Assembly (NCBI RefSeq): GCF_037042905.1
Contig: NC_087250.1
Location: forward strand, 6,512,001-6,572,000
Length of the DNA: 60,000 bases
Direction of reading: 5' to 3'
From: Lytechinus pictus
Lineage: Eukaryota
Below are positions 23,515 to 60,000 of this stretch, piece after piece. The notes beneath the pieces are model-generated. The model saw only the letters and a list, made by a program, of their open reading frames with translations, did not search any database and was not told where the DNA came from. Positions within the stretch are counted from its first letter, which is position 1, and each line of letters begins with the position of its first letter. Both the position numbers and the translations under genes were made by a program.

Positions 23515-23572
23515 TAAAGTTCAATAACAATCGTCACCGTAAGAACAGTCGTCACCGTCAAGAACAGTCGCC

Positions 23573-38970: not shown

Positions 38971-39990
38971 GTGTGTGTGTATTTCTCTTGACTTTTACTT
39001 TTATTAATGCGAACTAAGCCTCATCATCTGTGGAACTTTCCTTTTAATTTCTGAAAGCAACATTTCAAACGTTTTCATTACAAGTAATAGGCGTCTATCT
39101 TACAAAGAAAATAAGCGGAATGTCATATTGAGTACAATCATTTCAAATAAACGTACAAAGTAAACGTATAACTTACTCACACAGTTCGACCCTTATAATA
39201 GACTCAATGATTTCACATACTTTAATTTTTGCTTTGTATATTATTTAATGCCATTATTTTGGTAATTTATTATATGTTATATATTGTTCTTTGTATACCA
39301 ACAGCCGGAATATGATTTTTGTGCCAATGTAATTTTTATTTTGAGCATGACAATAAATGTTGAATATCTGAATATTTAATGGTGGTAGAATTAGTAGCAT
39401 CAGTGGCATGAACAGTAATAGCACCAGTAGTAGTAGTTGTAAAGAAATTGCAGTAGAAGTAAGAGTACACACTTAAAAATAGGTAGTCAAAATTTGACTA
39501 GTTTGGGTAGTCATTTCAAAATAACCCTGGATGTAGTCAAATTTGACTGCATATGGGGTCAACCTTTCACTGTTTACTTTGCCTTTTGGCTTTTTGACTG
39601 CGCCGGAAGTTAAAAATGACTAGGTGTATGAAGTGGAAAAATAACTTGCCTAAAGAGTCATCATCAAAATGACTGCAATGCAAGTTGAACGGCGGAGGGA
39701 TATATTACTGTGTGCAGTGTTCAATAATCAATAGTTATTTTGCTAATACTTGTAATGTTGTAATAGCAAACAAATTTAATCAGTGTGAAAGAAACAACAT
39801 TTTAAAACTTTCCATGTGTTTCACTTCATTTGCGTTGTGATATATATTATTTTTATCAAAGAACTATTTTACTTCAGGTCGAATCACTCAATGTATGGTG
39901 AGTATGATTTCGAATTTCCCGCCGCGTCTCAAGTAAATGCGAATTTTTTTACTGCAGTCTAGTCTGCATGCGACCGCTTAGTTGGTGTTG

Positions 39991-40048
39991 ATGATGGAGA
40001 GGCTCCTAAATAAGTGGGGATTAGGTGGTTTAGTTGCTGTGTTTGAAG
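39991..40048 (+). CDS. SAM-gene exon 1 (MMERLLNKWGLGGLVAVFE)
   Basis: ATG after an in-frame stop; strong donor GAAG|GTAAGA; supplies the missing first half of the SAM motif in exon 2. Confidence 0.7.
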
Positions 40049-43000
40049 GTAAGAAATTTGTCTTGAGTGTCAAACATATTTGTGTCTTTACTATGTAAAC
40101 TTACATGATTGTAGTATTTCGTTAAGCTTAAGTAATTTCACAAAATAACACGTTGACATTGACATTGCCATTGCAGTGCATGGCATACTGTAACCCAGAG
40201 AGCTCCCGCCCGCGCAGCGGGCGCACGTACGTGCATAGCGCCAACTTAATGTGTTCCGCCATCTTGCTTGTTGGTTGCCGATAAAATGCGCATTTTCAGA
40301 TTTTTTAACGCTCAGTTATTATCCATGACTGAAACATTGACCAATCAAAAACTAAGATTCTACAAGAAATATGAATATTCATATACGAAAGTATAAACAT
40401 AGATAATTCAGTTTTATGTGAAATTTAAACCCAATACTTCAAAATATGGTTAGTTTTATGTCTCTAAAATGACCCTTAAAACCAGAATTTTATTAGTAAA
40501 AAATAAAGGTTTTCCCAAGTTGCCATGGTAACGCAGTCTGAGATATAAAAGCTTAGCAAACACTTCATTTCAGTGATCGAGGATGTATTTGTTTACGGTA
40601 TACGTCTACATAAATTATAACATTTTTTTCCAGACCATGGATGAACTTTCAAAAAGAGACATTTTAGGCAAGTTTTTACGATTTCCGGCAATTTTCTGAC
40701 ACAGGCACTTTGAAGAGGTAATTTTTACAGAATTAGAAGAAGACATCATGGATTTTCCTAATTATCACGACGGATATGCAACTTACTTGTAAACAAATCA
40801 AACAAAGTCTATGATACATTTTCGATAATGCAAAAAGAGACATTCAAGTCTCTGATTGAGAGCCGCAGATTGAACATTCGCACGGCGCAATGGTAGCGTT
40901 TTCGCCGAATTCGTCGGGGCGAAAACTCCAAGAGAGCCGTACCACTCACCAGTCCCGAACGCTGCGCTGTATGTTTGATGATTTATCTGGTGCCATTTCG
41001 TGCTTATAAATTTGTTTTTTCTACAATGCCACTATCTCATTAAAATTGTTTGTCATGATAACATTGGAAATATTATCGTTTAATGGCCCAAAGGATCGAC
41101 TGTAATAAAAGATACTTTGAAATATTGTCAGAGAGTGATTAGTTAGGTGATGTTTATGGTCAAAATTTAGTCATGGCTTCGGGTGAACTTACGCGAACGC
41201 GGTCACTTGCTCACGGGGCGAGTCGGCCTGGCCCTTTGGTGGAAGGCCGTTAGGCAACGTGCAGTGCAGCTAGAGCAGAGTTGGGGAGTTATAGGTATAA
41301 AAATACTTTGAAATAAGTAATCTGCAAATATTTTTGTCTTATCCCTTTGGATTACTTAGATAAGAAATTCAAATTCTCAAAGTTTAAATCAAATTTTAGA
41401 CAGTGACAACAAAGAGTGGTGCTGTATGGGGGGGGGGGGTGGGGTCTTGCATGCCCCCAATTCACGAACAAGAAAAAAAAGGAAAAGGTAAGAGAATCTT
41501 GCGAAATTGTTCAATTGGATTTTTGTAACCAAAAGTGAAAATTATGCTTATGTCGCTTGCTTGCAACTATATATTTTATAAATTTTGCCTGATACGCCAT
41601 ATCGTAGTACCCTCATGCAATTATTTTCACTTGTTACGCCACTGACATGACTGATATAACATCTACTAGTTTATGATAACATTATTTGGTTGCGGGATCA
41701 AAGCATCAGCTATATAGCTAAACATTTATACTTTATGCCTGTTCAACTTCTAATACAGGTTTAGGCCTGTATTTATGAGATGTTAAGATCTATGGGTGCC
41801 TTTATTATTTTCATTTTCAATTAAAACAATTATTAATTATGTATTAATTTAGTATTAACCTCGATGATACATTTTATTGTATTAAATCGTACAATTTATG
41901 TTGTATTGTATTAAGCCCCTTATTAAGCCCTTTTAAAAACATGCTCAGTAGCAGACCCCCCCATATATAAAGACAATAGAAGTGTATATATAGAATTAAT
42001 TGAACCCCCCCCCCTTATTGAGGACAAAATGAAAAAAAATACTCAAAATAATCGACCGCCCCCCCCCCCCCTTTGACGAGGCAGCTGTCGGTGGCCTGAT
42101 GTCTTCATTGACTTCTTTTTGCTTGTAAAAATAATATTAAAGGAATAGGGGCTACTCTAAGTGTCCCCTGTGAAAATTGATTTGGATCTGCAAGTGCATG
42201 AGGCTGCGCCCCCTCCAACGTCATAGCTACCCCATATCTTTAGGTTCTAGCTCTCATATTTTTCAGCTCCCGTGTTTTTTGGAAGAAAAAAAAACGAGGC
42301 GAAAGAAAAGAGTGAAATAAATGAAATACGATTAATCAAAATTTGAGTTGTTTGAAAGAATTATACTTATCAGAGAAACTAAATTAAATTCTACAACCAT
42401 GAAGAATAACAGCAATCTTGATAAATTCTGTTTTTTTTTTCAAAATCAGAACCAATCAACCTTTTTCTGATTATTCTGTCACTTTCCATATTTTGGAGAA
42501 AAAAATAAAAGTGTTCATCGACGCCCTGTACTATACTGCATGATGAAACTGTATCCCCACTCGGCCCTCGTAACCCCCCCCCCCCCCTCTCTCCCTCTCC
42601 TCCTCCCCCACCACAATGCCCCTTGCTCATTTCTCTTATCTCACCTTGACCTTAATTAATTAATCTTAACTATTTGGCGGTACAGTCAAACGTGACTGGT
42701 CGCCATCATAGTTTCATCCCCAACAAACAAGGAACAAACTAACAATTCTGTTTTTCGACCCAACATCATTCCTTTCAATACGCGTAAGGCTATACGTGGG
42801 CATGCACAAACAACGTGGGTTAACAAAAACTGACCCGCGTTTGGACTAAAATTGTGATTAAAATAAAAATGTTATAAATATGAAAAAAATATGTGTATAA
42901 TGAAGGATATCTGATAAACGGAAAAACATCAATCGCTATTTCATAAAAATGCTGGAAAAGATTTGACAGAGGTTTTTAACAACGGTAATCAAGGGGAATT

Positions 43001-46000
43001 AGTGTATGGGTGAATGGCGTTCGAGCTTTAACCGAGCGTTAGCCGGAGAGGGCGCGGGCCAAATCTGCCTGAATCTGGCAATATGGCGTCGTCCATTAAG
43101 CTGACGTTAGCCAGCGGCGACTGCACGTACGTGGGCGGGAGCCCAGAATCTAAGACTAAGACAAGTAACACTTAACATAACAGACATTAATGCTAAGTCA
43201 ATCGTATTTCAACACTGATTATTCTGAAGTAAAGCGTTCCTGAATAAAAGAAACTGCTGAGAATTATACTTATTCATATGAAGATGAAATAGAGGGGATG
43301 GACTAGGCCTAAACTTCAACTTTCAAGCTTGAAGTTTGGGCCTAGTCCGTCCCCGCTATTTTCATACCCCATGACTACATCGACAATCTCGCTAGCCGGC
43401 TAGCACCGGCGATATCAAAGGCCGGATCCCGCTCTGACCATATCCCTACATTGACCTAAATTTGAATAGGCCTAAAATCGACAGTTTGTCGTTACTAAAA
43501 AACAGGAGGTCGGAAACAAGTCCACATCTACCCCTGATAATTGTCTAATCACAATAAAACTGAAATAAAATTAAAGGTTTACTTTGGACCTACATGAAGC
43601 ATTCCGATGAATGTCTAGATCTACGATAAACTATATAGACCCCTAGATATAGTATTTTTTGAGAAACTCAATGATCACACTTATTTGGAAGTCGGGCAAA
43701 AGAAATATTGAAATTGAGGTTTACATAGTGCGTAATACCGTATGGGTACTAGTATTCAACCCGGCATAATTCAAAGATTTTGACATATTCCCCAATATAT
43801 TTAGAAATGGGGAATTTATCTTAATTTCACACCTTTGTTATTTCCAGGGTATTCTGTTGTCGATATTTTCTTTGTCAATCTGTCGACTGTATGCGCGGAG
43901 GGTCGAATTATGCGGCGATGGCCTTTTGCACTGAATGGTACTAGTATTCAACCTAGTGAGGATTGATAGCAAATCTCAAAAGGGTTTAGATTGCTAAATT
44001 AGATCTAGATCTATGTAAGTCTCTGGCTTTGATTAATTCCCTGTTTGGTCTCATCTCAAATGGTCTAGTCCATAGTCGGATGGGACAAGTGCAGATTGAG
44101 AGACAGGGCCATCTTTCATCGCCAGGTTGAATACTAGTACCGACGGGTTGAATACTAGTACCAAAATCCGTCGCCGTATAATTCGATCGCCCGCGCACAC
44201 AGTCAACTGGTTGAAGAAAAAAATAACGGAAAAAGAATAACCAGCATTTGCTCTTGGAAATAAGACGGGTCTGAAATTCAGGTAAATTCTATATTTCTAT
44301 ATATTTGAGGAAACTCTCCAAACGGGTTGAATACTAGTAGTGCCCCTTACGGTACAGGATGAGCCCCGAACCCCGGCAAACACATTACAATTTGCAAGTG
44401 AGATCAAAACATGAAAATGAGCCGCGTAACTTATTTTTATTCCTATGGAATGTCATTAGAATAGTATTGATGTTCCCTCCAAGATTTTCCGCTCCAATGA
44501 AGTTCACTCAGAAACCATGATTTCGAACATCAATTCTATAAACAGATAATTAGTCTAGCTATTTCGTTTCAGAAACTTCAAATTTGCAGAGTCCAAAAGA
44601 ACGACACTTCGCACAGATATCGTAGGGAATTGTGGGACAGAAAAAAATGTTTAATGCATGAGTACATGAATAAAACATTAGCGTTTAATCCAATCATACA
44701 AGTGCATTATGCGTATTTTGACGTCATTCTCATGAATAAAACATTGACCCTCCAAAATCATCCTTCAAATTGTCCGCCGGCAGCCATGTTGGCTATGTGC
44801 AAAACCTATGGGAAATAAAACACGCGGAAAGAGTTCCCTCTCTAGCTCCCTTTGGGAGCTTACGTATACGTAAGATCGTATCTCTGTGCCTACAACACAC
44901 AGTACAATGTCCCATGCAATGTCTATGCGCTTGTGTGCTTTACGCATACACACAACCCAGTGTGTAAGCACTGCGCGCATATCATATGCAAATAGGTAGA
45001 CAGGCCAGTCTATTCTCAAGCAGGGTAGAGTAAGTTACTTACAAAGATAATCAAAGAGTTGCCTAAATTTTAGCAATATCAGTTTTAGGAAGAAAACAAA
45101 CTGAATAATCATGCCTTTAGAATCTATTATAATGCAATGAAAATGATATTTAGCCACTGTATCTTCTGTTTGACATATTTCCCCATTATGTTGATACCCC
45201 TATTCCGAAATTGATGAACCTATATGGTATGATAAGTTTATTGAACTTTATTGAACCCTGTATGTCTAGACTATTCCATTTTCAGTTAGGTATGTGGTGC
45301 ATCATAAATGACTTGGAAGTACTAACAATTGTTTTTCTCACAAGTAAAATGTATTCTTATAACTGCAGGAATTTATTTTTTCATAAAGATGTTATTTCTT
45401 AAGATTTATGTCTATCATTCATCCCATGTAAAGCTCCTACAGGTTGCATAGGGCCAATGTCTTATTACTCTGAAATCATATATCCCCATAAGTAAGAGCT
45501 GTGTTCCACACTAAGTATTGATTAGACTCTCAAGTTGCCAATGGGAAGAGTGGTCATTGAAATCCTCTCTGACAGGCCCTCTGTCGCGAATGAGTTAAAT
45601 CGTAAGCACAGCTTACATCGCAAAATTGGATGTTCAGTTGAATTTTTGGACAGTTGAAAATTAACGCAAAAAATTGCATTTTGAAAATGAATAGAGTTTT
45701 GGGTCTGATATGAAGACAAATATTGGATTTTGGACCCTGAAATTGTTTTTTGATGTTAAGCCGGCATGTACAATTTTGTACGCCAATGTTAGAAAAGACG
45801 CGCAAGCGTTGTTTTAAATCGTAAGTACAGCTTACATCGCAAAATTGGACGTTCGGTCAGATTTTTGGACAGTTGAAAATTAACGCAAAAAATTGCATTT
45901 TGAAAATGAATAGAGTTTTGACAAATAGACAAATATTGGATTTGGGACCCTGAAATTTTTAGAATTGGATGTTTAGAATTGCAAAATTGGACGTTCATTT

Positions 46001-49000
46001 AAATTTTTGAAAATGAATAGAGTTTTGTGTCTGGTATAAAGACAAATATTGGATTTTGGACCCTGAATTTTTTTTTCGGATGTTTAGCCGGCATGTACAA
46101 AAACCCAAATAAAATTCCTCATTGATCTTTTTTGCCTGCCAGGACCAGTAACAAAAGTCTACCAAATTCTGCCTGTTTTTATTTGGTACTACTGATAATA
46201 ATATACTTCCCTACATGTATCTTTTGCCAGGTGTCATTAACATAATCAAGGCCTAGCTCCTTGGTTGCTGGATATTCATTTTGCAATTAGACATTATAAA
46301 TAAATTGACCTCTAGATGACCTTCGACCTGTCGGGTCACTTCAAAACCCCAAGCAATGTAATACTAGTCAGTCAAGGATCCCGTTGACCAAATTTGGTGG
46401 CCAACTTTTTGTGATAAAACAAATTTCACCTAAGTAATCTGCTTAATATGGCCTTTTATCGTGCATAAAAATCTCACTTTTGATGAAAAAATTTCAGGGA
46501 TGATTTTTGGGATCATAACATGCACCTTTAACGGTTAACCTATAGATAGTTAACAAAATAATGGTTCATTTTTTAGTAAATCGCAGAATGCCCCTGCCTT
46601 TAATTTAACTTCCATGAATTGCCAAAGGAAACCAAAAGTGGTTGTGACAATGAATGATTTCAAGTGCTGTAACTTCTGTCACTATTTATGTGTGCAGGTA
46701 AAAAAGTCATGTTTTTGACACTTTTTGACATGTTTTATAATGCTGAACCATCAGAAAATTTGGTACCAGTAACCAAAAAAAAAACGAGAGATCATGGCGT
46801 AGATGTATTTTGAATGACTGAATGTTCATATTTTGTTTTTTCATGTCCGTCTTTTCAGAGAATGGTATAGATGATCATGCCTTTAAACATTTGGAGGAGG
46901 ATAAAGATGCCATAAAGTTGTTGATTCCGAAGTTAGGAGAGAGGATAAAATTTCTTCTGCACTACAGACCATACATAAAACAACTTCAGGTACATGTAGT
47001 ACATTGACCATATACATGTATACTATATATTGACCATGGGATTTGTGTGTTATAAGTGCCAAAACACTATATATTTTGGGTTTCGTTACTACTTAAAGCA
47101 TCTGAGAGTTGTTCATGACATTATCCAAGGAAACCAGTTTAGATGCCCTGTACCTTGTTATCAGGATGGATGTATGAGGACATTTCAATATACTTGGTCT
47201 TTAAAGAGACATTTTAAAAGTGAACATGCACAACTTGAACATGTTGATGATGATCAGCAAAATGAAGAAGCTTTTCAGGAGCAGGACCCTCAGGCTCAGC
47301 AACTTGATTTGGATCTAAATCAAGACATAGCTGATGAAGAAGATGAGGAAAATGAACCAGAAACTGACATTTTCATAAAAAGTGCACAATTTCTTTGCAA
47401 GCTTAAATCTACACGACATGTCACTGGTACCACTGTGTCCCTAGTTCAGCAGTCAACCACAGATCTTATTTCTGACATAGTTGGGTGTATAGGCGAGAAA
47501 GTGAAGACACTTGTTGCAAATTTAGGTGTTGATGAAGAAAATCCGGAATGGCAAGAATTATCCAACTGTCTGAATAATCTTGAACAGCCATTTTCTGAAG
47601 TAAACACAGATTACAAACTGAAGAAATACTTACGAAAATTACAGGGCTTTGTCGAGCCAAAGTCAATTAATTTTATGAATGGAAATCAATTAGCTGTCGA
47701 GTATGTACAAAGAACAGATAGAAAAACCGGAGAAGTGCAGCAAACAGAAATCAACAAAGATTTCCAGTATGTACCATTGAAACTACTCCTTCGACAGATA
47801 CTGATGAGTAAAGGTTTGATGGAAGCTATAATAGAACATCAACAAAATGTTAAGGATGACATTCTTCAGGATTTCCAAGATGGTGAACTGTGCAAAAGCC
47901 ACCTGAATATCTACGGCCATAAAGTCCTCTTGTTGATATATGGTGATGACGTTGAGGTTTGCAATCCACTTGGATCGAGGAAGCATAAAATCGGTTTAAT
48001 GTACTTCACGATCAAGAGTCTACCAAGAAAGTACACATCCGCACTCGAGCATATTTACCTTTTGGCTGTTTATAACAATAATGATGCAAAAGCCTATGGA
48101 ATGGATCAAATCTTACGTCCCATAATCAATGATTTGAAGAGTCTGGAGAGTGATGGGATTGACATTGAAACTGATGTGTTTTCAGGCAACATTCGCTTTG
48201 GAGTGGCACAAGTTGTTGGTGATAATCTGGGTGTCCATGGTCTCCTTGGATTTGTGGAATCTTTTTCAGCAAACTTCCCTTGTCGTCATTGCAAAATCTC
48301 CAGAGATGAAATTCAGACACAATATATTGCAAGTTCTGTTCTTAGGAATGAACATAACTATATGGAGGATGTTGCTATAAATGACGTATCAGCAACTGGC
48401 ATCAGACGGAACAGCATTTTCAATGAGCTTCAGACATTTCACGTAACTAGGAACTATGCCCCAGACATCATGCATGATGTTTTGGAAGGGGTGTGCATGT
48501 GGGAACTTAAGATTGTGATACGAGAACTTATACGAAGCGGTAAATTTACACTGGAACTTCTGAATGGCAGGATAACCAGCTATGATTATGGATTCACTGA
48601 CAAGTGCAACAAACCAACCTGCTTCACAGAAAAAGATCTCAGATCTCCAAATGCTGCAGGACAAACAGCTGCACAGATGTGGTGCATAATGAGGCATTTC
48701 TGTCTTATGATGGGCGACTGTGTTGAAGAAGATAATCAATACTGGGAGGTCATACTTCTCCTGATTGAGTGCATGGACATCATTTTCTCCCCTGTCAATA
48801 CTGTAGGAGAAACTCGCTATCTCACGCAACTCATAAGAGATCATCATCAAATGTATGTTGAAGTGTTTGAAGCTCATCTCAAACCCAAGCACCATTTTAT
48901 GTTGCATTATGCAAAAGCTATCAGAGAGATTGGGCCATTGGGGCAATATTGGGCTATGAGGTTTGAAGCTAAGCATAACGACTCCAAACAGATGGGTCAT

Positions 49001-52000
49001 GTCATTTGCAACTTCAAAAATATACCATTATCATTGGCAGTCAAGCATCAAATGCAGTTGTGCTATACATTGCATACTAGGAAATCATTGGAAGATTCAA
49101 TGTTAGAAGTTGGACCAGGGGAAGCTACAGTACTCGCTTCATTGGATGATGCAGAAATCATCTCAAATCTGTTAGACAACTATCCATTGTTTGATGATGT
49201 TTTCATTGCGAAGTGGATTAAATTCTGTGGCACCATCTACAGAAAAGGTATGATTTTGGTTGTAGGGAAGTGTCCAGATGAGGATCCTAATTTTGGGAAA
49301 ATACATGAGGTCCTTGTTCTGCCAGAATCAAAAGTTAAGTTCATCGTCCAGCCATGGTCAGTAGTAGGGTATTCTCGCCACTTGCATGCTTATGTTGTCC
49401 AGAAACCAAGCATACTTACTAGACTTGCTTCATGTGATGTAGAACAACTGGTAGATTTCCACCCACTTCATGCAACACAGGCTTATATGGAAGGAGACAA
49501 CTGGTACATCAGCCCAAGATACTCACTTTAATGTGGTAAGAAAATAAAAGGTGAAAATGCCTTTACCAAATATGCATCAGTACAGAATGATCTTTTTGTT
49601 CTGTGCTTCTTTAAAATTTATCTGTAAAGTTTATGACCTGTGTAATAAAATAACATTTTGCACACCTTTTAATATACAATTCCAGTTTTAATTTAAGAAA
49701 ACCGATTTTTTAATAAGTCAATTTAACAACAATGCTCAGTTGCTCACACGTTTAGAGGTTAATGTGACTGATACGATTGAGTTGGGAGTGCAAGCGACCT
49801 TTCATTTTTTCACAAGAACATTTTAAATCCCCACCGAATCTTCCTAGCGTGGGTCACACTTGAACGCATTTAACCACTTCAAAGCAAACCCAAGTATCTG
49901 AGTAAACAAAAGAACACTTGAACTTAGCTTTCCTGGTCCATGGGGATGTAATGTATGTGGTAGCTCATTATGTGTTTACTCTTCCAGAAAAGAATCGATT
50001 ATTCAAAATGCCTTCAGCTACATTCTCTGAATCGCACATGAATACAATTAACATGCTGGTACTTATATTTTGTTGTTTTCTTCTTTTATATTGTCTTAGG
50101 GAGAAAATGCTGATGCAGAACTATCTGAAAAGGAACTAGAACCAGGGGAAGTGTGTGAATCTGTGGCAGAAAAGTCAACAAATAGATGGATAAGAAAGGA
50201 AGCTGTGAAGGTACCTGATAAGACAATAATGTCTGTGAGTATATAACCCTATAAGCCCATTCACATTAGAACCAAGCAACCCTTTGGCCTTTGAACCCTC
50301 AACCCTTGAGCGAAGATCTAAAAGAACAGTATGCCAAATTTGGATTTATGTTGTTCAAACTTGGACATGACTTGCTTAAGACTTTGACCTTTATGAAAAC
50401 ACAACTGTTTGCTATTTTCATGTACTTTTTTAACAAATTAGCATAATTTAAAGTAAAACAATAGAAATCGTGTTTTATTTTTTTCCTGAAGGCCTTGAAC
50501 TGTAGTTAGCACAACATACTTGTACATGTACTGTACTTCCGGTGACCTGACCTAGAATGTCATCCGGGTACTTGTTCTTGTTTGGTGCTCAAAAGTTATT
50601 GTTATATGTCATGTTTGTAGCGGAAGGAGTTCTAGTCAAGGATAAGGCATTAAATTGTTTTCAAACTACATTGGACAGTGTTTGTTGTAGTTAACATAGG
50701 TTTTACTTAAACATGCTATGCACACAAATCACAAGAAATGAAGTAAATGAAAAGCCTCACAAATCTGTCGAGCCACTTTTTTTAATTTAGATACTTCAGA
50801 AGTGCCAAAAAAGCACAATGTTTGGGTTTCTCTCGGATCCGAGAGAAAATATTACACTATAGTCTATGGGGAAATGTAATGCACGTAATGATGCATAACT
50901 TGGCAATGCAAAGTTCAAATTGACTGAAATTTTGGAAATAGGGTTTTCTTGGGTGTATCTACTGATACATGTCATTAAAAGTGGGGGTCAAAATCAGGGA
51001 ATGTCCCTTTAATTTGATACATTTTGATACACTGCTACTGCTAATAGGTAGGCCTATATTTTTACATAGTATTGATATTATCAAAACTGTATCAAATTTC
51101 GGCAAGGGAGATAAACAAAGTGAGCAACTTCATGTTTAAGTAATTTTCAAATTTGTCTAGTTTGGCCTTGATTGACCATATTACGGTGTTGCATATATAG
51201 TCATGAATTGCTTCTATAATTCCAGAGTGATGTAGCAATGCTTTCATCTGATAGTGACTCAGCCGAGGAAGAAATTAGTGCAGGACCAGCAAAGAAACAA
51301 AAAACAGAAATGAGTGGACCAGCAAAGAAACCAAAAACAGAAACGAGTGGACCAGCTAAGAAACCAAAAACAGAAATGAGTGGACCAGCAAAGAAGCCAA
51401 TTGTGAAGATGTCCAAGACACCATATGAATTTGTGAGTTTACTAAATTAATATATACCACTTACCAGGTTTAGTGAGGACTGCCTTTCAATAAAAAAAAA
51501 TACTAATCAATAATAAAAACCCAATATTTTGAGCAAAATAGGAGTCATGCTGAATAATAGGCCTACAAAATCAGATTGATGTAAACATTTTGTATTTCGT
51601 TATTCATTGCACTATACATAATTACATGTACATATCAACTCGTTAACAAAAACTTTTGATAACAAAAAGTATTTTTGTCAAATCTCAAGAAAATGCCTCA
51701 CATGGTATAAATTTAAACAGTTCTGACAAGAAGTAAATTCTAATTCCCATGTACTTTAACGAGTAACAAATAATTTTTTTCTGGCCTAACTGAAAAAAAA
51801 TACTGGTATAATAAAAATAACCGTTCAAATATTTGTTTTTTTCTTTACCAAATTCTAGGACATAAGTGCTATTCTGGAAAAGGCTGCTGGTGGCCAGTCC
51901 ATTCTCGGTGAACTTGAAGAAGGTGGACCACAGAGTGCCTCTAACAGACGAAGAATGGTGAGAATAGTTGTATCCCACCTCATGGAGAAATATGGAAACA

Positions 52001-55000
52001 AGTAAGAAAATACTCAAAAATTTACAAACAACTAACAAAATCAATAGACCAGGGTTGGAGCTTAGACCAGTCAAAAGCTATTTTTCACAAAAGTGGTGAA
52101 ATGCAGGTTTCTGGGGATATATGAGGGATGGATATAAGTTCTCAACCTTCAGGTAGAAGGAGAAAAGATAAATTGATGATTTTCATATCCCTGATATGAT
52201 TCAACAACTCTTAAAATTGGGGGGGGGGAAGTTTCATTATAAAAATTAACTGAAATATTTGCTTTGTTACAAAACTTTGACTGTTTCAAGTTTCTGAAGA
52301 TAACTTTTCAATAGAAAATGAAAAGACAGTTACAATCAATATTCATCTCCAAACTTGTTCAGATGCATGAGGGTCATGGTGCAGTGACATCACTGGAAGA
52401 TGATTGCCCTTGCTGTGCTGCTAAAAAGTATGCAGCATAGTTTAAAGGCAGCAGGGAGCATCTGGAAGATGAATGAGTGCAAAATCTATTTACTAATAAA
52501 AGACAAATTTGTTCTTATATTATCTTATAGGTATCTGTAGTAGATCATTATTTTTTTCCTTTCTTCTTGGATCTTTATAATAATAGACCATCTGCTGAAC
52601 AGAAGGTGGGCATGGCAATATCCATGATTCAACAATTTCCAGCACTGAAAGATGTTGAAGGACCTGGTTATGTAAGTATAAGTTTAATCATGTTAAAAGA
52701 ACATCATTTGAAGCAGAAAATTGTGTTGTTATCAACAAGTTGTTTTTGTCCCATTGTACCATATGGCTTTCCCCATGAACAATAACTTTGAACAGAAGAG
52801 AAAATACCGGACTCATCTAACGCTTATTGGTGGCATTTCGGTTTCTCTCGTGCCATATTCTTTCTGTTGTTCAATAACAACAATATGCGTTGTCAACTAT
52901 TTTGCACCATCATAAGTGTTTAAATACTGAATTGAACAAAACTTTTACACTTAAATGTTACACTTTTTTAGGTTGTACTGTAAAGTAGGTGCTGTACAGT
53001 GCGTCCCAAAAAAAACTATACACTTTTGAAATAGCTGCCAAATAAAAAATGTAGCTCTTTGGGGTAAAAGACTTACATAAATGGAAAGCCAATAAAGTCA
53101 ACTTTAAAATGACACCAAAAATTGGAAAACTATTCATGCTTGAGCGAGCACTGCCCACTGAAACAAAGGGTATGAAAATTAGGGTGGGCTGGAATTAGCC
53201 TTCCAATTTATGTAAGTTTTTGAGAGGCAAATCCTTTCGAACTTGCAAAGTTAAGGGCGATGTGATAAATTAATGATCAACCATGACCAGTTTTGGTTGC
53301 TTAAGCAAATTTTATAAATTATTAAATTGAACTTTAATGCATGAGTGAACACAAATTACACTTTTTGGGCAGAATTCCAACTTTATCATGTGGATCTCAG
53401 CAATGTGTTCATGGGAGTCTGGAGAATAGGGGGTGAGATAGGACTTAAGTGAGAGAAGTAGGTTGATGGAATAAGGGTCAACAGAACATTCAGCCCCCGC
53501 CCCTCCCTCTTTCCCGCCCTCCCCTCCTGTTGAGAGATTGATGGCTATTGTCATGTACGCGTGAAGTCCAGAGCAGAATGTTGATTTAATGATTAATTCT
53601 GGATTGGGACATCAACTTTTTCCTATCAATCATTTAATCAACAATTTATCAGTAAATCAACTTATTCAATGTGCAAAGTGATCAATCAAACATTCAGTTT
53701 TTTTTCAATAAATTATTTCATTAATCATCATAATCATTAAATTTCTTGGTAATCATTGAAAAATAAAACTGACCATCAGCCACCGGTCACTTGGCAGTTA
53801 GGTTTTGAATAGGCTACAATGCAGGAAGTGAGACAGAGAGAGGGGGGGCTGGGAAATGGAGGTGATCAGAGGGGAGGGTACATATGACTTTTAATTTGTA
53901 AAAGAAAAAAAAAAGAAGAGGAATGCCCTTTTAACCAAGTCTTAGCATATCTCGCCCTCTTGCTTGTAACGGGTACCATCACATTACTCTGACTCTCACG
54001 AACACACTTCTGAGGTTCACAAGATGAATATGCTACAATAAAATTACAATTCCTGTTCACTCATGCATTAAATTTCAATTTAGTAACTCATGAAATTTGC
54101 CTAAGAAACCAAAACTTATCTCACTCATTAATTTAGCTTAACAAGTTCCAAAGGACTAACCACTCAAAAAAACTGTAAGGCTAATTCCTGCCCAGTCTAG
54201 CTGAGCTTAGTCTCTCAGGAGGAGAGAAGCGGGGGGGGGGGGGTTGAGATTGAGAGAGGGGTTGCTAAATGTTCTGTTGACCTTTATCCCATCAACGTAC
54301 GTCACCTACCTAAGTCATATTACCCCCCTCTTCTCCTGACTGTCGTGAACACATTATTGAGATCCACATGATAAGACATAATGCTGCACCCAATTCATGA
54401 TCACTCATGCATTAAATTTCAATTTAATAACGCATTAAATTTTCACAAACAACAAACTGATCACAACTGATCTTTAATTCACCAAATAACCATCAACTTT
54501 GCAAGTACCAAACAAAGAAACCTGAAAGAAATTGGAAGGCTAATTCCAGCCCACCCTAATTTTCATACCCTTTGTTTCAGTGGGCAATGCTCGCTCAAGC
54601 ATGAATAGTTTTCCAACTTGTTGGTGTCATTTGAAAGTTGAATTTATAGGCTTTCCATATCTATAAGTCTTTTCCCCCAAAGTGGTACATTTTTTATTTG
54701 GCAGCCATTTCAAAAGTGTATAGTTTTTTTTGGGACGCACTGTATATTCACTCATTGCTGTTACATGTATTTCTTTGTATAAATTTCGCACATAGGAAGC
54801 ATGGTATACACCAGCAGTAGAGGGTGCACATGCAAAGGGCTTCATCGAAGAAAGGTTGAAAAATGTGAGAAAGAGAATGCCAAAGCAAGGGTGGACATCT
54901 TTGGAACCTTCAAGTTCAAGTGAGGAGAACCAGAAAGAACCATCAACCAAGGAAAAAATTGAAGAACTAAAATCTAAAGGTATGTTAATGTGCCTAGTTT

Positions 55001-58000
55001 AAGTTTTGTTGCATGCTTTGTGAACATTGAATGTTTAATTATTACTGGCTCATCTTCAAGTTCAAGTTGGGTTTGGTAGGCTTACTTGATTACAATCTTC
55101 AGAATTATCAGATGATTTATAATGTTCCACATTCCACAGGGACCAGTCTTTGGTCTACCAATTTTCACCTCATGATGCTCAGCAGATTGCTTGTGATCAA
55201 GTTAGCTCAATCGGTAGGGCATTGTACTCCAGATCTTAAGGTTGTGTGTTCAAGTCCCAGCGCAGCCATGATTTGTATGTTTGATTGAAATTCCCTTGGC
55301 CACGGAACTAATTGCTTATTGTCTCAGCTACCGGTATAATATTCGGGGACTCCGAGAGCTGGTCCCAGTTGCAATATTGTTCTTCTAGATGTAGGCTGAA
55401 TAGGGTTCTGTGCCCAATAGCAGCTGCATCCCTGGATGATGCTAAATGGAGTGTCTTTTGGGTGAAAGTGATCAATGCCATTTCTCTCAAAGTGTGTTGA
55501 GGCTGTGAGTTTACGCTTTAAATTTGTAGAGCGCACTTTAAAATCATCTGCATGTTTTTTTTTTTGTTTTTTTTTTTGTTGCTTGTAACACTTAATCAAC
55601 TTGCATCAAAGGCATGTTCCAACCTCTTACAAGAAACCTATAACTAGTTTAGATAAATTTTTACAGGAAGCTTAGTCTGATTCCTGCAGTGCATCTGGTC
55701 AGGAACTTACATCCCAGGGGGGGGGGGGGTCTGTCCTCATTGAAAGGGGGGGTATCATGCATGACCAAGGACTTGCCAAAAGCATCCTAAACAAGTATTT
55801 ACAAATGCAAAAATATACACCCTAAATAAGTATGATTATCGGTAATTTGCTACCCTAAGTAAGTAATCCCCAAAGCAAGTAATAACTATTTTCAAACCAA
55901 GCAAATAGTGATATATGTTTTGCTTTCCGTGCATGAGGTCGGGCTAATTCAAGTGTTTGCGGGCATGTGCAAAGTGTTTTTGGCTGGGATTTGGGAATAT
56001 TCCATCATTGTGATAAACTGTAGTGTTAAATGAACATGCAATTAGCCCTAAGTACACAGGTAAGGTGAATTTTTTTTAAAGACACTGAATACGTAACTCA
56101 TCGGTTTAAAAAAAGTGACCCTTTTTCTTGATTTTTTTGTGATTTTGAGACCCTATTTAAGTTACGCACGTAACGTGCATGATTGTAAAAAACACCCTTT
56201 TTACGTGAATTCTTGGTCAAGCATGATACCCCCCCCCTTTCAATGAGGACAGACCCCCCCCCCCCCCCCGGGACTTACATCAGTGCACTAGATCTTAGGA
56301 TTGATTGCCGTCAAATTTTAGAGCCTTAAACAGGTGTCACCGGCATGGTGGCCTAGTGGTTAGAGTGTCCGCCTCATGATCGGGGGGTTGTGGGTTTGAA
56401 CCCCAGCCGGGCCATACCAAAGGCTTTAAAAATGGTACCTACTGCTTTCTTGTCAGGCACTCGACATTAGAAGAATGGAGTAGGGAAGTTAAACACATGG
56501 CTACCAGTGGACTAACCCCCTGCTGTAGTTTCTCTACTTTCCAGTAGACATGTGGCCTAGGTTTATTGAAATGGAGATAGGCGCCGCTCTATGGGCCGAA
56601 AGGCTTGAGAAGGACTTTAACTTTTTGTAAAAGGTAGTTTAGGGTTTGCTGTAGGTAGCCTACTATTGATTTTGTTTTTTATCACCTTGTCTTTTTCAGA
56701 AAAAGATATGGAGCCGGAGAACTTGGAAGAAATGAAGCAATGGCTTCAACATAATAATAGCCCTATCCCTAAAGTGGTGGAATTCATGAAGAAGACTGCA
56801 CTGAAAAGACAAGAAGAAATTCACTCAGAGAAGAAATCTACCGTGCATGACATCGAGTTGCAATGGCCTCGACTCTTTGATGTCCCTAACATGGTATGGG
56901 TAACTTTTGTTTTCTTGGTTTATGTCAAAAGTACAGTAAAGCATTAATTCTTGAGGTGTGCTTCTCAAAAACCCAAATAAAATTCCTCATTGATCTTTTT
57001 TGCCTGCCAGGACCAGTAACAAAAGTCTACCAAATTCTGCCTGTTTTTATTTGGTACTACTGATAATAATATACTTCCCTACATGTATCTTTTGCCAGGT
57101 GTCATTATCATAATCAAGGCCTAGCTCCTTGGTTGCTGGATATTCATTTTGCAATTAGACATTACACATGTGCCCACCCCAAAATTACCATACTGAATCA
57201 AGGTTTTACAATCCTTCTTTATGCATTTTAATTTGCATCACAGATAGATGGTGATTTCAGAGCAGTTCATGGGGATGTGTCTGACAGATTAATCATGAAA
57301 TGGACTCAAGAACTGGCAAAAAAACTACTGCAGTATGGAGAAAAGCAAAGTCCACAAGTGCAAGCCGGTACATATTTTCCCCGGGGGAGGGGCACTCAAT
57401 ATGAAAGTGACGTACGAGTAAGATCACACATCTCGAACATAGGGGTCTTTCGGTGATGCGTTCAAATGAAAAATAGGGGGTCTTTGGGTGACAAATGAAA
57501 AATAGGGGGTCTTTGGGTGACAAGTAAAAAAATAGGGTGTCTTTCAGTGACAGTCTAAAATCTGGGTTTTTCGGTGACACACCAAGCTAAAAAATTGGCT
57601 CTTTTTTAGTGTGATTAAATGGCATTTTTCTGAAAATCAAAAATTTGGGCAATTTTTGGGTCAGAGAGTGCAAAATTCATGGGTCTTTGGGTGACAGAAA
57701 AAAATTGGGTCATCAAATGGAAAAAACGGGGGTCTTTGGGTGACAGCAGTCCAAAAAAGGGGGTCTTTTTGATCGCACATGGTGCGAACTTCAATATTGA
57801 GTGCCCCCACCACCACCACCCCCACCCGGGGTATTTTCTGTAATATTTTGCTTTTCAATAATTTTGTATACTGTTGTAAAAAAGATGCGATTCAGTGTTA
57901 AAATATTTACCATGGAATTGCTCTATTTTAATTGAAGTTTGTTTTCCTTTCAGATATAGATGATCAAAGTGCACAGGATGCAGGTCTGACAGCACTGCCC

Positions 58001-59272
58001 TTGATACTGCCTACAGGAAAACTGTCAAACGCAAAGAAATCCAGGGCTACGGTGAAAGAAGCAATGGAGTCCTTCATTGATTTTCAGCCGGTAAGTATGG
58101 AGTAAATTTTAGTGCCTATACTAAATGAAATGTTTGGGTATAGAGGTGGGATGCAGATGGGATATATCCAATTGGAGGATGTTTTTGTATATCTTCTTGC
58201 ACATAAAATGAAAGAAATGCCTCAAGTACTCCATTTGGTTGAAAGTGATATGTAAAGAATGGGACACGTTCATCAAGACAACAACAGTTTGGCTGATGTG
58301 ATGCTCACACAGTTTGTATTGCATAGATCTGTCTTACTTAATTGTTATCATCGGAGATGCCAGACTTCAGGAAATTTTTTTCAGCATCTCCAGTACAAAA
58401 CAAGATTAAAAATTCATATTTTCAAGAAATTTTATTAGCGTTTCAGGAAAATGTGACCAAAGTCACTGGCATCTCTGTATCATTTTGATTATGGTTCGAT
58501 TAACTGCAGAATTTGCATGCTTGTCGCACTACATTTGTAGCACATCCCACATGCAGCCCAAACTTTCCATGTTTGCTAATTGAAGTTCAGCTGACAGGTC
58601 CCTAATAGAACTCGACTCTCACTCTACACCTAGATCTGTGATAGATCTTTAGAACTGTGATATAAAGAAAGGTTAAGTTTATATGACAACTTCTATCATG
58701 ATCATGGTCAAGTTACAGTAGTTACCCTCACTATATAGATTTGACAGACTGACCCATGATGTCAAACGCCAGGCAGTATAGTCAAATATTGTTCCTCGAC
58801 CAGCAAAGTGTGTGCACACAATGTACATCAGGACCATGCTAAAGCTATATCTATCTACAACCCACTTACCAGTAAGAATTAAGTACGCAGACAGAAAATA
58901 TCTAGATTTATTTTTTAAATGTAAATTAATCAGTAGATTAATTTTCTCTTTTTACAGATAGGGACAAACCTCCCTCAATACTTGGATGGACTCATGTCAA
59001 AGAGGCGGCAACCATTTGTCCTGGCCCTTGGCCCACAGAAAGCGCCAGCACAATATTTTGCTGTGGTTGAGGGCCGTGCCCTTAAGCAAGACAGCCTTCT
59101 GAAGGCTGTTGATGTGTGTTTCAAGTTGTTTTATGTACTTGACCTGGAGTATCCATCTGCGTGCTATACTACATGGGAGTTTATTCAAAAAGTTCTGTAC
59201 CAGGTAAATGCCAAAGACAGGAACACCTCCTCCTGTGTGAGGTCACTAAGGACATATGTCCTTCATACTTAA
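39991..59272 (+). CDS. 11-exon gene, ~570 aa: N-terminal SAM domain, acidic/basic linker with NLS-like repeats, SAMD3-like C-terminal region; probable transposon accessory protein
   Basis: Hand-assembled exons, all GT-AG and phase-compatible: 39991-40048, 46859-46989, 50100-50234, 51226-51432, 51859-52001, 52587-52671, 54796-54979, 56700-56893, 57244-57367, 57954-58090, 58958-59272 (1713 nt, no internal stop). Motifs: LNKWGLGGLVAVFEENGIDDHAFKHL..LIPKLGERIKF; QQFPALKD; GFIEERLKNVRK; QWPRLFD; AVDVCFKLFYVLDLEYP..TWEFIQK. Confidence 0.8.
40200..43144. mobile_element. ~2.9-kb non-autonomous TIR element (possibly PIF/Harbinger) in intron 1
   Basis: GAGCTCCCGCCC..CACGTACGTGCA..CTTAATG..CGCCATCTTGC mirrored by GCAATATGGCG..CATTAAG..TGCACGTACGTGGGCGGGAGCCC; AGA on both flanks. 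Confidence 0.6.
43738..44352. mobile_element. Tc1/mariner-pogo-like MITE with TA TSD
   Basis: TA|CCGTATGGGTACTAGTATTCAACCCG ... CGGGTTGAATACTAGTA..CCCTTACGG|TA; GTACTAGTATTCAACC motif repeated internally in both orientations. Confidence 0.8.
45595..46100 (+). repeat. Local tandem duplication, ~220-bp unit, two copies plus a partial third
   Basis: TAAATCGTAAG.ACAGCTTACATCGCAAAATTGGA at ~45596 and ~45815; GAAAATGAATAGAGTTTTG..GACAAATATTGGATTT three times. Confidence 0.85.
46098..46296 (+). repeat. 199-bp segment duplicated at 56966-57164
   Basis: CAAAAACCCAAATAAAATTCC...GCAATTAGACATTA; one substitution seen (TTAACATA vs TTATCATA). Confidence 0.95.
46859..46989 (+). CDS. SAM-gene exon 2 (ENGIDDHAFKHLEEDKDAIKLLIPKLGERIKFLLHYRPYIKQLQ)
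   Basis: Polypyrimidine tract and TTTCAG acceptor; CAG|GTACAT donor; SAM-like motif. Confidence 0.8.
47036..49531 (+). CDS. CACTA/EnSpm(CMC)-like DDE transposase with two N-terminal C2H2 zinc fingers, 831 aa, intronless and intact
   Basis: CYKC..HLRVVH and CYQDGC..HFKSEH fingers; LIYGDDVEVCNPLG (first D); VGDNLG..PCRHC (second D plus CxxC); PDIMHDVLEG; KHHFMLHY; WAMRFEAKH (E); AATAAA at ~49543. Confidence 0.9.
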   Translation: MGFVCYKCQNTIYFGFRYYLKHLRVVHDIIQGNQFRCPVPCYQDGCMRTFQYTWSLKRHFKSEHAQLEHVDDDQQNEEAFQEQDPQAQQLDLDLNQDIADEEDEENEPETDIFIKSAQFLCKLKSTRHVTGTTVSLVQQSTTDLISDIVGCIGEKVKTLVANLGVDEENPEWQELSNCLNNLEQPFSEVNTDYKLKKYLRKLQGFVEPKSINFMNGNQLAVEYVQRTDRKTGEVQQTEINKDFQYVPLKLLLRQILMSKGLMEAIIEHQQNVKDDILQDFQDGELCKSHLNIYGHKVLLLIYGDDVEVCNPLGSRKHKIGLMYFTIKSLPRKYTSALEHIYLLAVYNNNDAKAYGMDQILRPIINDLKSLESDGIDIETDVFSGNIRFGVAQVVGDNLGVHGLLGFVESFSANFPCRHCKISRDEIQTQYIASSVLRNEHNYMEDVAINDVSATGIRRNSIFNELQTFHVTRNYAPDIMHDVLEGVCMWELKIVIRELIRSGKFTLELLNGRITSYDYGFTDKCNKPTCFTEKDLRSPNAAGQTAAQMWCIMRHFCLMMGDCVEEDNQYWEVILLLIECMDIIFSPVNTVGETRYLTQLIRDHHQMYVEVFEAHLKPKHHFMLHYAKAIREIGPLGQYWAMRFEAKHNDSKQMGHVICNFKNIPLSLAVKHQMQLCYTLHTRKSLEDSMLEVGPGEATVLASLDDAEIISNLLDNYPLFDDVFIAKWIKFCGTIYRKGMILVVGKCPDEDPNFGKIHEVLVLPESKVKFIVQPWSVVGYSRHLHAYVVQKPSILTRLASCDVEQLVDFHPLHATQAYMEGDNWYISPRYSL
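50100..50234 (+). CDS. SAM-gene exon 3 (GENADAEL..PDKTIMS)
   Basis: TCTTAG acceptor, TCT|GTGAGT donor, open phase 0-0. Confidence 0.7.
51226..51432 (+). CDS. SAM-gene exon 4 with ~4 x 33-bp repeats encoding SGPAKKPKTEM
   Basis: TTCCAG acceptor, TTT|GTGAGT donor. Confidence 0.8.
51859..52001 (+). CDS. SAM-gene exon 5 (DISAILEKAAGG..RRRMVRIVVSHLMEKYGN)
   Basis: TTCTAG acceptor, AA|GTAAGA donor. Confidence 0.8.
52587..52671 (+). CDS. SAM-gene exon 6 (PSAEQKVGMAISMIQQFPALKDVEGPGY)
   Basis: TAATAG acceptor, TAT|GTAAGT donor. Confidence 0.8.
52997..54742. mobile_element. Non-autonomous Tc1/mariner element with very long TIRs and TA TSD, in intron 6
   Basis: TA|CAGTGCGTCCCAAAAAAAACTATACACTTTTGAAAT ... 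ATTTCAAAAGTGTATAGTTTTTTTTGGGACGCACTG|TA; close inverted match for ~215 bp, looser to ~500 bp. Confidence 0.92.
54796..54979 (+). CDS. SAM-gene exon 7 (EAWYTP..GFIEERLKNVRKR..ELKSK)
   Basis: ACATAG acceptor, AAG|GTATGT donor. Confidence 0.8.
55196..55268 (+). pseudogene. tRNA-Trp(CCA)-like pseudogene or SINE head
   Basis: TAGCTCAATCGGTAG (A box), ACTCCAGATC anticodon arm, AAGGTTGTGTGTTCAAGTC (B box); acceptor stem does not pair well. Confidence 0.55.
55713..56272. mobile_element. Non-autonomous TIR element with CCC(A/G)GG ends and perfect 8-bp TSD
   Basis: GGGGTCTGTCCTCATTGAAAGGGGGGGTATCATGC.TGACCAAG mirrored at the right end; ACTTACAT at 55705-55712 and 56273-56280. Confidence 0.9.
56338..56626 (+). 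mobile_element. tRNA-derived SINE
   Basis: A box TGGCCTAGTGG, B box GGTTTGAACCCC, core CCATACCAAAGGCTTTAAAAATGGTACCTACTGC, tail GGACTTTAACTTTT. Confidence 0.85.
56700..56893 (+). CDS. SAM-gene exon 8 (KDMEPENLEEMKQWL..QWPRLFDVPNM)
   Basis: TTTCAG acceptor, ATG|GTATGG donor. Confidence 0.8.
56966..57164 (+). repeat. Second copy of the 199-bp segment at 46098-46296
   Basis: Direct comparison. Confidence 0.95.
57244..57367 (+). CDS. SAM-gene exon 9 (IDGDFRAVHG..KWTQELAKKLL..VQA)
   Basis: TCACAG acceptor, CCG|GTACAT donor. Confidence 0.78.
57380..57830. mobile_element. Non-autonomous TIR element with CCCGGG ends, 8-bp TSD and internal GGGGTCTTTGGGTGACA repeats
   Basis: CCCGGG..GGGGCACTCAATAT / ATATTGAGTGCCCC..CCCGGG; ATATTTTC / GTATTTTC flanks. 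Confidence 0.85.
57954..58090 (+). CDS. SAM-gene exon 10 (IDDQSAQDAGLTALPLILPT..SFIDFQP)
   Basis: TTTCAG acceptor, CCG|GTAAGT donor. Confidence 0.8.
58352..58477. mobile_element. Possible tiny hAT-like MITE
   Basis: CGGAGATGCCAG / CTGGCATCTCTG ends; TATCAT on both flanks. Confidence 0.45.
58958..59272 (+). CDS. SAM-gene terminal exon 11 (SAMD3-like C-terminus)
   Basis: TTACAG acceptor; QPFVLALG..YFAVVEG..AVDVCFKLFYVLDLEYPSACYTTWEFIQK..TAA. Confidence 0.85.
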   Translation: MGTNLPQYLDGLMSKRRQPFVLALGPQKAPAQYFAVVEGRALKQDSLLKAVDVCFKLFYVLDLEYPSACYTTWEFIQKVLYQVNAKDRNTSSCVRSLRTYVLHT

Positions 59273-60000
59273 TTTTCAACCATTTAATGGTCAATGTCAG
59301 TTCAATGTCTCCTAATTTGGATATGTCTGTATGCCATGTATGAAATTCAATACTAAAATGGATTTTACAAGTTCAGGTATCGAGGTACGTCAATTCCTCA
59401 AGGCAGCAGCTCCACGTGCGTACTTAAGCAGCATCTTCAATTGCTTGCGTGTGTACGCATGCACCTTTAGGGTTCCTTTGTGACATCAGATAAATGCGTA
59501 TCAATTTCACTGCCTATCCTTTTCAAATCTATTTTAGTCATTCGTTTACAGGGGGGTACAAAGGGTATCCAAATTCCAATACCACATTTTGATTTTAAAT
59601 TTTGCAAGCAACAAAACAAACAAAATTGCAAAGTGGCAAGTATGCCAACATTTTCATTTTGTCTGCTAAATACCTCTGCGTTTTAAATTGTATCTCTGCA
59701 AATTAATGCTAGTGGCTTTAGAAGATGGGTTTGTGACAAAAAGCTCAAACTTGTCATTTTTGTGGCAAATTATGGTTTTTCGATCAGTTAAATTTATAGA
59801 CTAGGTTTAAGCCAAAATGTTTGCACAGATAACATTTAATGTACATAAGTTAATATATAGCAGACACATTAAGCAAGTTTTGACATAATTACCACTGTGT
59901 GATATTGTTTTCTTGACATTAATATTCTGGTAGCAGAATTCAAAGACCTTAGCCCTCATTCATTATACTATGCCATTCATTATACTATGCCATAACCAAG

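Follow-up and report, generated by a model that had tools for sequence, protein, structure and literature searches.

Transposons of the CACTA/Mirage/Chapaev (EnSpm-like) kind end in CACTA or CACTG termini that form an inverted repeat, and are flanked by a target-site duplication of 2-4 bp. In the maize element En/Spm the CACTA terminal repeat is 13 bp long, the duplication measures 3 bp and tnpA consists of 11 exons. Here we describe a 60,000-nt stretch of Lytechinus pictus DNA from contig NC_087250.1 (assembly GCF_037042905.1), called the window throughout, in which a single + strand unit running from 39468 to the window end carries a transposase open reading frame (ORF) within an intron of an 11-exon gene for a partner protein with a predicted SAM domain. 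The unit, at least 20 kb in size, is likely to comprise the left portion and all of the coding part of a multi-copy transposon of this kind, with one transcription unit and two products. What has been observed in favour of this reading is the set of ORFs, the arrangement of splice sites, a linkage and order of the two genes that are conserved elsewhere, and part of the splicing. All coordinates are positions in the window.

The closest described systems are a plant and an animal element. The transposase ORFs of En/Spm lie in an intron of the abundant tnpA message, the tnpD message holds both ORFs in tandem, and TnpA also represses the promoter of the element, as recounted by DeMarco et al. 2006 (PMC1636069). 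The subject of that paper, SmTRC1 from Schistosoma mansoni, is an animal CACTA-like element with several spliced transcripts. A shorter, more abundant transcript lacks the transposase domain, one clone contains two tandem ORFs, and Tnp2-like sequences are noted in the Strongylocentrotus and Danio genomes as well (PMC1636069). Its authors state that SmTRC-PrA/PrB show no similarity to anything encoded by other animal elements (PMC1636069).

The L. pictus unit resembles maize En/Spm in having its transposase ORF within an intron of the accessory message, and in a transposase message that continues into the accessory exons. The short message without transposase is the more abundant in En/Spm and appears to be so here, and the end of the element starts with CAC and leads into subterminal repeats. 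The differences are the animal hosts, a terminus that reads CACAC and not CACTA, a partner with neither detectable Pfam similarity nor, in any of the searches made, likeness to the TnpA family, and the SAM domain predicted for this partner, the exon for which relatives share with the transposase or join to it in one frame. With SmTRC1 the unit shares an animal CACTA-like character and a short, abundant splice product without transposase. It differs from SmTRC1 in that the partner belongs to a large conserved family with SAM (1428 clusters, from echinoderms, fishes, springtails, wasps and spiders).

A first-pass annotation of this stretch, made from the sequence alone, had proposed the likeness to En/Spm and knew of no functional description of such a two-component system. 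Our literature search, outside which lay Repbase reports and subscription journals, found no SAM-bearing transposon and no transposon origin of SAMD3. An animal CACTA-like element with a short, abundant splice product that lacks transposase, SmTRC1, was already in print (PMC1636069).

Layout of the unit

The stop-to-stop frame at 47000-49531 (+) has its first ATG at 47036 and encodes 831 aa without an internal stop (P0001). It lies wholly between exons 2 and 3 of the partner gene and on the same strand, as the first-pass annotation had claimed. The 11 exons of the partner gene have AG/GT at every internal border and join in phase into a coding sequence of 1689 nt, giving 562 aa and a stop. The model of 11 GT-AG exons proposed earlier is thus confirmed as an in-phase chain, with its length corrected from about 570 aa. 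Its end has also been revised: exon 11 runs on beyond the donor proposed there to a stop codon at 59270-59272, which matches annotated L. pictus proteins. The L. pictus models P0081, P0082 and P0083 end in the same way, and Holothuria conserves this ending. The features of the unit are as follows.

39468-39488, + strand: candidate left terminus CACACTTAAAAATAGGTAGTC, CACAC followed by an A-run; unique in the window at up to 3 mismatches
39483, 39507 and 39533 (region 39483-39539), + strand: three subterminal repeats GTAGTCA, with AGTCAAA/TTTGACT inverted motifs alongside
39991-40048, + strand: exon 1, start codon and first half of the predicted SAM domain; aligns with the SAM N-termini of relatives
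46859-46989, + strand: exon 2, second half of the predicted SAM domain; phase-0 end at a GT donor; AG/GT borders
47036-49531, + strand: transposase ORF, 831 aa, with two C2H2 fingers and a putative DDE core (D304, D396, E644)
49535-49540, + strand: strong splice donor G/GTAAGA (the slash marks the exon border), 3 nt past the transposase stop codon
50100-50210, + strand: exon 3, acidic linker; an alternative donor near 50234 is also used, and the acceptor is also used in P0002
51226-51432, + strand: exon 4, 33-nt repeats encoding basic units like GPAKKPKTE
51859-52001, + strand: exon 5, start of the conserved core; carries the Met used by the NCBI models P0080 and P0081
52587-52671, + strand: exon 6, RNA joints on both sides
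54796-54979, + strand: exon 7, RNA joints
56700-56893, + strand: exon 8, RNA joints
57244-57367, + strand: exon 9, RNA joints; skipped in some reads
57954-58090, + strand: exon 10, RNA joints
58958-59272, + strand: exon 11, including the stop codon 59270-59272

The repeat family of exon 4 (D5) has at least three copies of a 52-nt unit at a spacing of 33 nt. The exon 11 product consists, in order, of a helix, three strands and three helices.

Linkage of transposase and partner in other genomes

The linkage of the two genes was examined by running a transposase profile against metagenome contigs, which gave 80 loci at 28-45% identity, and by searching these loci for the partner by tblastn with 46 partner proteins. 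Partner matches occur at 25 of the 80 loci, in all 25 on the strand of the transposase and never on the other; the partner match lies downstream at 17 of them and upstream at 8. Where the flank extends for at least 5 kb, a partner match is present at 10 of 19 loci.

Fused proteins give the same picture. Of 254 proteins compared, seven align with the transposase and, further along the chain, with the partner. Their sources are two sea cucumbers, Holothuria leucospilota (three proteins) and Apostichopus japonicus, and from the three fishes Anabarilius grahami, Xyrauchen texanus and Merluccius polli. The Holothuria model P0015 combines SAM, transposase and partner core in a single chain. The crinoid protein P0106 aligns with residues 2-559 of the spliced 562-aa product (E 1.5e-69), which shows the complete SAM-linker-core architecture as a single protein in another echinoderm class. 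Within L. pictus itself, LOC129263367 (P0002) connects the C-terminal part of the transposase with the peptide of exon 3, which shows the same gene order in one or more further copies in this species.

The fusions in five other species and the same-strand linkage at 25 of the 80 loci argue that the two genes form one unit and did not meet by chance insertion. Judged from sequence comparison, transposase and partner travel as one conserved unit. The first-pass annotation had named homologues lying unlinked elsewhere as one observation that would overturn its reading; in the genomes examined here, the linkage held.

The order of the two genes varies among the metagenome loci. At seven of them (L010, L019, L043, L044, L045, L047 and L052) it is reversed, with the whole partner gene upstream in a tight tandem, and in 7 of the 8 upstream cases the transposase starts within a few dozen bases after the partner stop codon. 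A third arrangement is seen at locus L027, where a frame resembling SAM exon 2 (3995-4174) lies 3' of the transposase and 5' of the partner core.

A SAM exon next to the transposase

No exon in the window matches a Pfam SAM family on its own. Residues 2-64 of the spliced product align with the N-termini of P0177, P0110, P0088, P0106 and P0120. P0177 scores above the Pfam SAM_1 cut-off (28.5 versus 23 bits), as do P0150 and P0206, and P0143 scores above that of SAM_2. By way of these relatives, and hence indirectly, exons 1 and 2 of the window appear to encode a SAM domain (PF00536/PF07647).

A profile of the SAM region of the family detects sequence resembling exon 2 at 21 of the 80 metagenome loci. 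At 7 loci it is part of the transposase's own open frame, at 12 it forms a separate small frame that ends between -12 and 88 nt before the transposase, and at 2 it lies elsewhere, so that the SAM exon stands directly before the transposase or within its ORF at 19 of the 80 loci. P0068 is an uninterrupted SAM-transposase ORF. A phase-0 GTGAG is located exactly at the end of the SAM region in 4 of the 7 fused loci. Of the 12 loci with a nearby frame 10 were examined, and all of these have a GT at the SAM end, a stop 1-6 codons on and the transposase start 20-80 nt on. The window has the same layout, with a phase-0 donor at 46989, a stop at 47005-47007 and the ATG at 47036. What is new here is that the SAM exon stands immediately ahead of the transposase or in one ORF with it, in many cases with a splice donor precisely where SAM ends.

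Since the SAM exon of relatives abuts the transposase or is continuous with it, a shared 5' module is a better reading of this exon than part of a gene that hosts the transposase in an intron. The donor at its end is, from the arrangement of exons and frames, best read as a switch between transposase and partner. The SAM domain noticed at first pass is accordingly present to the extent that the N-termini of its relatives pass Pfam, but it is not a domain of the partner only, being shared with the transposase in relatives. In-frame AG acceptors precede 47138, where an RNA contig starts, and 47165, which matches a junction in a Holothuria model; a SAM-transposase fusion in the window would need a small in-frame intron.

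Transcripts

RNA matching positions 39400-59399 was sought in three raw RNA-seq runs with the same species label (X17, X18 and X19) and in a contig run (X2) tentatively taken to be RNA. Fifteen splice joints are listed and 4 further ones were found; absences of junctions given below apply to the listed joints.

GT..AG joints are seen for 6 of the 10 predicted junctions, namely those between exons 5 and 6 (52001 to 52587), 6 and 7 (52671 to 54796), 7 and 8, 8 and 9, 9 and 10, and 10 and 11. All six are found in X2 contigs and three of them also in X17, with 1, 4 and 1 reads. The exon 1 donor (GT at 40049) is joined to exon 5 (51859) in 6 X17 reads and one X2 contig, while exon 9 is skipped by 4 X17 reads and included by 1. 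In all spliced X17 reads the first mate is on the - strand, as expected of + strand RNA in most stranded libraries. The NCBI models P0080 and P0081 begin in exon 5.

The transposase message is represented by a 2637-nt X2 contig that covers 47138-49534, continues through a GT..AG joint (49534 to 50099) into exon 3 and passes by a second joint (50234 to 51226) into exon 4. The acceptor of exon 4 is therefore seen in X2; use of its donor is not seen among the listed joints, and the same holds for every junction of exon 2. The partner contig has a depth of about 1727-2271 and that of the transposase 19.6, although depth is a poor measure of expression.

Of the ten junctions for which the first-pass annotation had called for RNA confirmation, six were thus recovered, and the other four are not among the listed joints. 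Its comparison with En/Spm splicing gains from the splice that joins the transposase to exon 3 and from the partner junctions, but not from exon 2, whose junctions the listed joints do not include.

The transposase

D304, D396 and E644 are invariant in all 43 aligned sequences and presumably constitute the catalytic triad. The spacer from the second D to the E is long and has conserved C-x2-C and H-x3-H motifs; further conserved positions in the alignment are C416/C419, H480/D481 and H620/H624/H647. A profile built from the 43 relatives matches solved two-finger C2H2 domains over positions 3-63 (best E 2.1e-7). The C2H2 region and the DDE residues reported at first pass were both recovered in this way, the latter with a putative catalytic role.

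Among the 43 relatives, Tnp2 (PF02992) is matched by 12 at E up to 0.01, Plavaka (PF18759) by 4 and DUF4218 by 3, all at scores below the Pfam cut-offs. Tnp2 and Plavaka are known from plant and fungal CACTA-type elements, and their profile matches fall over the region of the first D. The long D-E spacer with C-x2-C and H-x3-H is a further likeness. Points of difference are the sub-threshold scores, the lack of a match for P0001 itself, the N-terminal C2H2 fingers and, in relatives, an additional N-terminal SAM. These features of the transposase, together with the CACAC A-run terminus and the subterminal repeats described below, make it likely that the element belongs to the CACTA/Mirage/Chapaev kind, in line with the earlier assignment to CACTA/EnSpm-like transposases.

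The partner protein

At E up to 0.001, relatives of the partner core, which exons 5-11 encode, fall into 1428 representative clusters; at E up to 1e-10 the number is 305. Named relatives come from all five echinoderm classes, many teleosts, a springtail, a wasp and a spider, and nearly all are named uncharacterized. Pfam assigned no family over the core in any of 46 partner proteins, which besides SAM contain single stray domains only, and a sequence search for relatives of solved structure returned none at E up to 1. In 40 long relatives the N-terminal module is SAM in 6, C2H2 fingers in 2 and Myb/SANT in 1.

Weak fold matches to clan-CE proteases (SseL, PopP2 and SENP3) were set aside; a protease reading was dropped because the family has no invariant Cys or His.

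The partner family includes the fish proteins si:dkey-286j15.1 and zgc:113210 (P0088, P0093 and cluster members), which several species share at 90% identity or more and which may have been domesticated. Among fish proteins with SAMD3-like, zgc:113210 or si:dkey-286j15.1 names, those with the last two names are related to the core, and some have a SAM domain. In a protein-language-model atlas, a chordate cluster labelled 'SAMD3-like' scores 0.82 with the core and 0.95 with the crinoid SAM-plus-core protein. A link between SAMD3 and the partner core is possible on this basis, with the atlas scores serving as leads that the shared SAM domain may drive. No protein named SAMD3 appeared in the sequence searches, and none is among the 13 proteins scored in a profile search for named relatives.

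Element ends

The window sequence at 39468 reads CACACTTAAAAA. Mapped termini of relatives, taken as the points at which the similarity of two copies starts, begin with CACACAAAAAAG, CACTGAAAAAA and CACGCAAAAAAAA and continue into short repeats; their left ends are CACAC, CACTG and CACGC, each followed by an A-run. By likeness to these ends, and not by alignment of this element's own copies, 39468 is a plausible left terminus, which agrees with the element start proposed at first pass. GTAGTCA has only 3 + strand occurrences in the 60 kb, all within 72 nt of the left end and 24-26 nt apart, and AAGTGCT/AGCACTT repeats occupy the corresponding subterminal place in relatives. Short subterminal repeats, a hallmark by which CACTA/Mirage/Chapaev elements are recognised, are thus present in the window.

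Inverted-repeat and pattern searches found no inverted copy of the left end in the window at up to 3 mismatches, which places the right end outside it, beyond base 60000; the right terminal inverted repeat that the first-pass annotation had hoped to locate is accordingly absent from the stretch. No AATAAA or ATTAAA poly(A) signal occurs between 59273 and 60000, so the 3' untranslated region as well as the right end probably lie beyond the window. Pairing of CAC...A-run motifs at the metagenome loci gave matches forced by the pattern, with no convincing terminal inverted repeat or target-site duplication, and was dropped.

Copies and neighbouring repeats

Over 65% of its length, P0001 is matched at 100% identity by L. 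pictus LOC129263367 (P0002); a few residues of that protein differ from those of the window. For exon 11, three L. pictus models show 99-100% identity and a fourth shows 69%, on contigs of 70.6, 42.4 and 32.0 Mb, and two of the matching models represent clusters of 12 and 22 member sequences. These near-identical copies mark the window unit as one copy of a young multi-copy family.

Several introns contain other repeats. The highest raw-RNA read depth by far is at 43402-44735 in intron 1, on both strands and with many loose ends; this is a highly repeated, transcribed element nested in the intron. A 204-nt sequence is present in intron 1 (46098-46301) and intron 8 (56966-57169) at 99% identity and may be a small repeat family or a duplicated piece. 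Intron 6 contains a long inverted repeat (52995-54744) with arms of 135 and 102 nt, 90-94% complementarity and more arms inside; it looks like a nested foldback or an insert of the miniature inverted-repeat transposable element type, and RNA reads and contigs pile up over it on both strands. A perfect 36-nt inverted repeat in intron 7 (55717-55752 and 56231-56266) surrounds G13/C13 runs, at which reads break.

Upstream of the unit, an 881-aa frame at 23543-26188 (+) matches DUF1759 (E 1.4e-7) and contains a region that is CCHC-like and protease-like; it probably represents the beginning of gag-pol in a BEL/Pao-type long terminal repeat retrotransposon. A long interspersed nuclear element at 28994-32035 (-) has a 590-aa RVT_1 frame (E 8e-35) after a 332-aa endonuclease/exonuclease/phosphatase frame.

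Discussion

The layout suggests how one transcription unit could give two products. The two 5' exons would encode SAM, and splicing from the donor at 46989 past the transposase to exon 3 would yield the 562-aa SAM-linker-core partner. If this donor is left unused, the transposase ORF, which starts 47 nt on, would be retained in the mRNA, and the strong donor 3 nt past its stop codon would join the transposase mRNA to the partner exons, as in the maize tnpD message. Low-level transposase could then come from translation that reinitiates downstream of the short SAM frame, or from removal of a small in-frame intron with its acceptor before 47138 or 47165. SAM is a self-associating module in many proteins. 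Here it may bring together partner and transposase, or several partner molecules, at the element ends, and the partner may act in a TnpA-like role, by binding the GTAGTCA subterminal repeats, by regulating the element, or both.

A number of observations weigh against a two-product transposon. At the RNA level, the junctions of exons 1-2, 2-3, 3-4 (from the donor at 50210) and 4-5 are not among the 15 listed joints. The commonest form observed, from exon 1 to exon 5, skips exons 2-4; it does not keep the frame of the SAM start and agrees only with the SAM-less models of 350 to 359 aa. Spliced reads come from one of the three raw runs, X18 and X19 having none, and since reads were accepted from 95% identity they may derive from any copy. 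For the transposase, P0001 finds no Pfam match at E up to 1, and the best Tnp2 match of its relatives (E 2e-6) reaches 27.6 bits versus a cut-off of 28.6, with the scores of all relatives sub-threshold. Fold searches with the partner yielded no clear match, all scores being below a meaningful level, and the homeodomain-like and double-stranded-RNA-binding-domain-like hits are leads only. In the linkage screen, 55 of the 80 loci have no partner match, although the contigs of many are short, and some of the loci nearly duplicate one another. As to the fused proteins, they are predicted gene models, which still indicate co-linear genes on the same strand. Finally, a right end and target-site duplication were not found, the right end having been sought within the window, so that this copy counts as no more than a candidate mobile element.

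Three other explanations were considered. In the first, which we regard as rather unlikely, the partner is mainly a regulator or inhibitor and not a cofactor of cutting and joining, for example through a SAM-less short form that titrates or represses the element. The prevalence of the exon 1-exon 5 transcript, which encodes the SAM-less core only, would fit such a role, as would the start of P0080 and P0081 in exon 5 and a partner contig about 90 times deeper than that of the transposase, although contig depth measures expression poorly. Paralogues in which C2H2 or Myb/SANT replaces SAM give the impression of an effector core that is directed to one target or another, and TnpA of En/Spm likewise represses its promoter (PMC1636069). 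The link to the transposase is nevertheless kept across deuterostomes, which fits a required function equally well.

It is more improbable that this copy, or the whole family in L. pictus, is a fossil or domesticated locus that is expressed but immobile. The unit exceeds 20 kb, has foreign repeats in introns 1, 6, 7 and 8 and shows no right end in the window, and the related si:dkey-286j15.1 and zgc:113210 are single genes in several fish species. However, the reading frames of transposase and partner are both intact, two or more chromosome-scale contigs carry partner copies with 99-100% identity in exon 11, and RNA contigs match both genes at 95% identity or more. Near-identical, expressed copies with intact ORFs make the urchin family a candidate active element.

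Chance insertion of an autonomous single-gene transposon into an intron of an unrelated host SAM-domain gene, with which the window alone, in a region full of other mobile elements, would be compatible, is highly improbable and largely refuted by the strictly same-strand linkage, the seven fused models from five other species, the splice of transposase to exon-3 peptide in P0002 and the SAM exon abutting the transposase at 19 of the 80 loci.

The two-product transposon therefore remains our preferred reading, and it has consequences beyond this locus. Two-product cut-and-paste transposons are well studied in plants only, with SmTRC1 as the one described animal case. The accessory family reported here has no Pfam family and no solved relative and is tied to one transposase lineage in echinoderms and fishes, which gives an origin for hundreds of unannotated animal genes. 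The suggested splice switch is compact and testable. Tentatively, we envisage a widespread animal CACTA-like lineage in which the SAM exon is a shared 5' module and the donor at its end picks either the transposase or the accessory protein. SAM might support co-assembly at the element ends, and the accessory family might be the source of zgc:113210, si:dkey-286j15.1 and possibly SAMD3. The link to SAMD3, if true, would give a human gene of unknown function a transposon origin.

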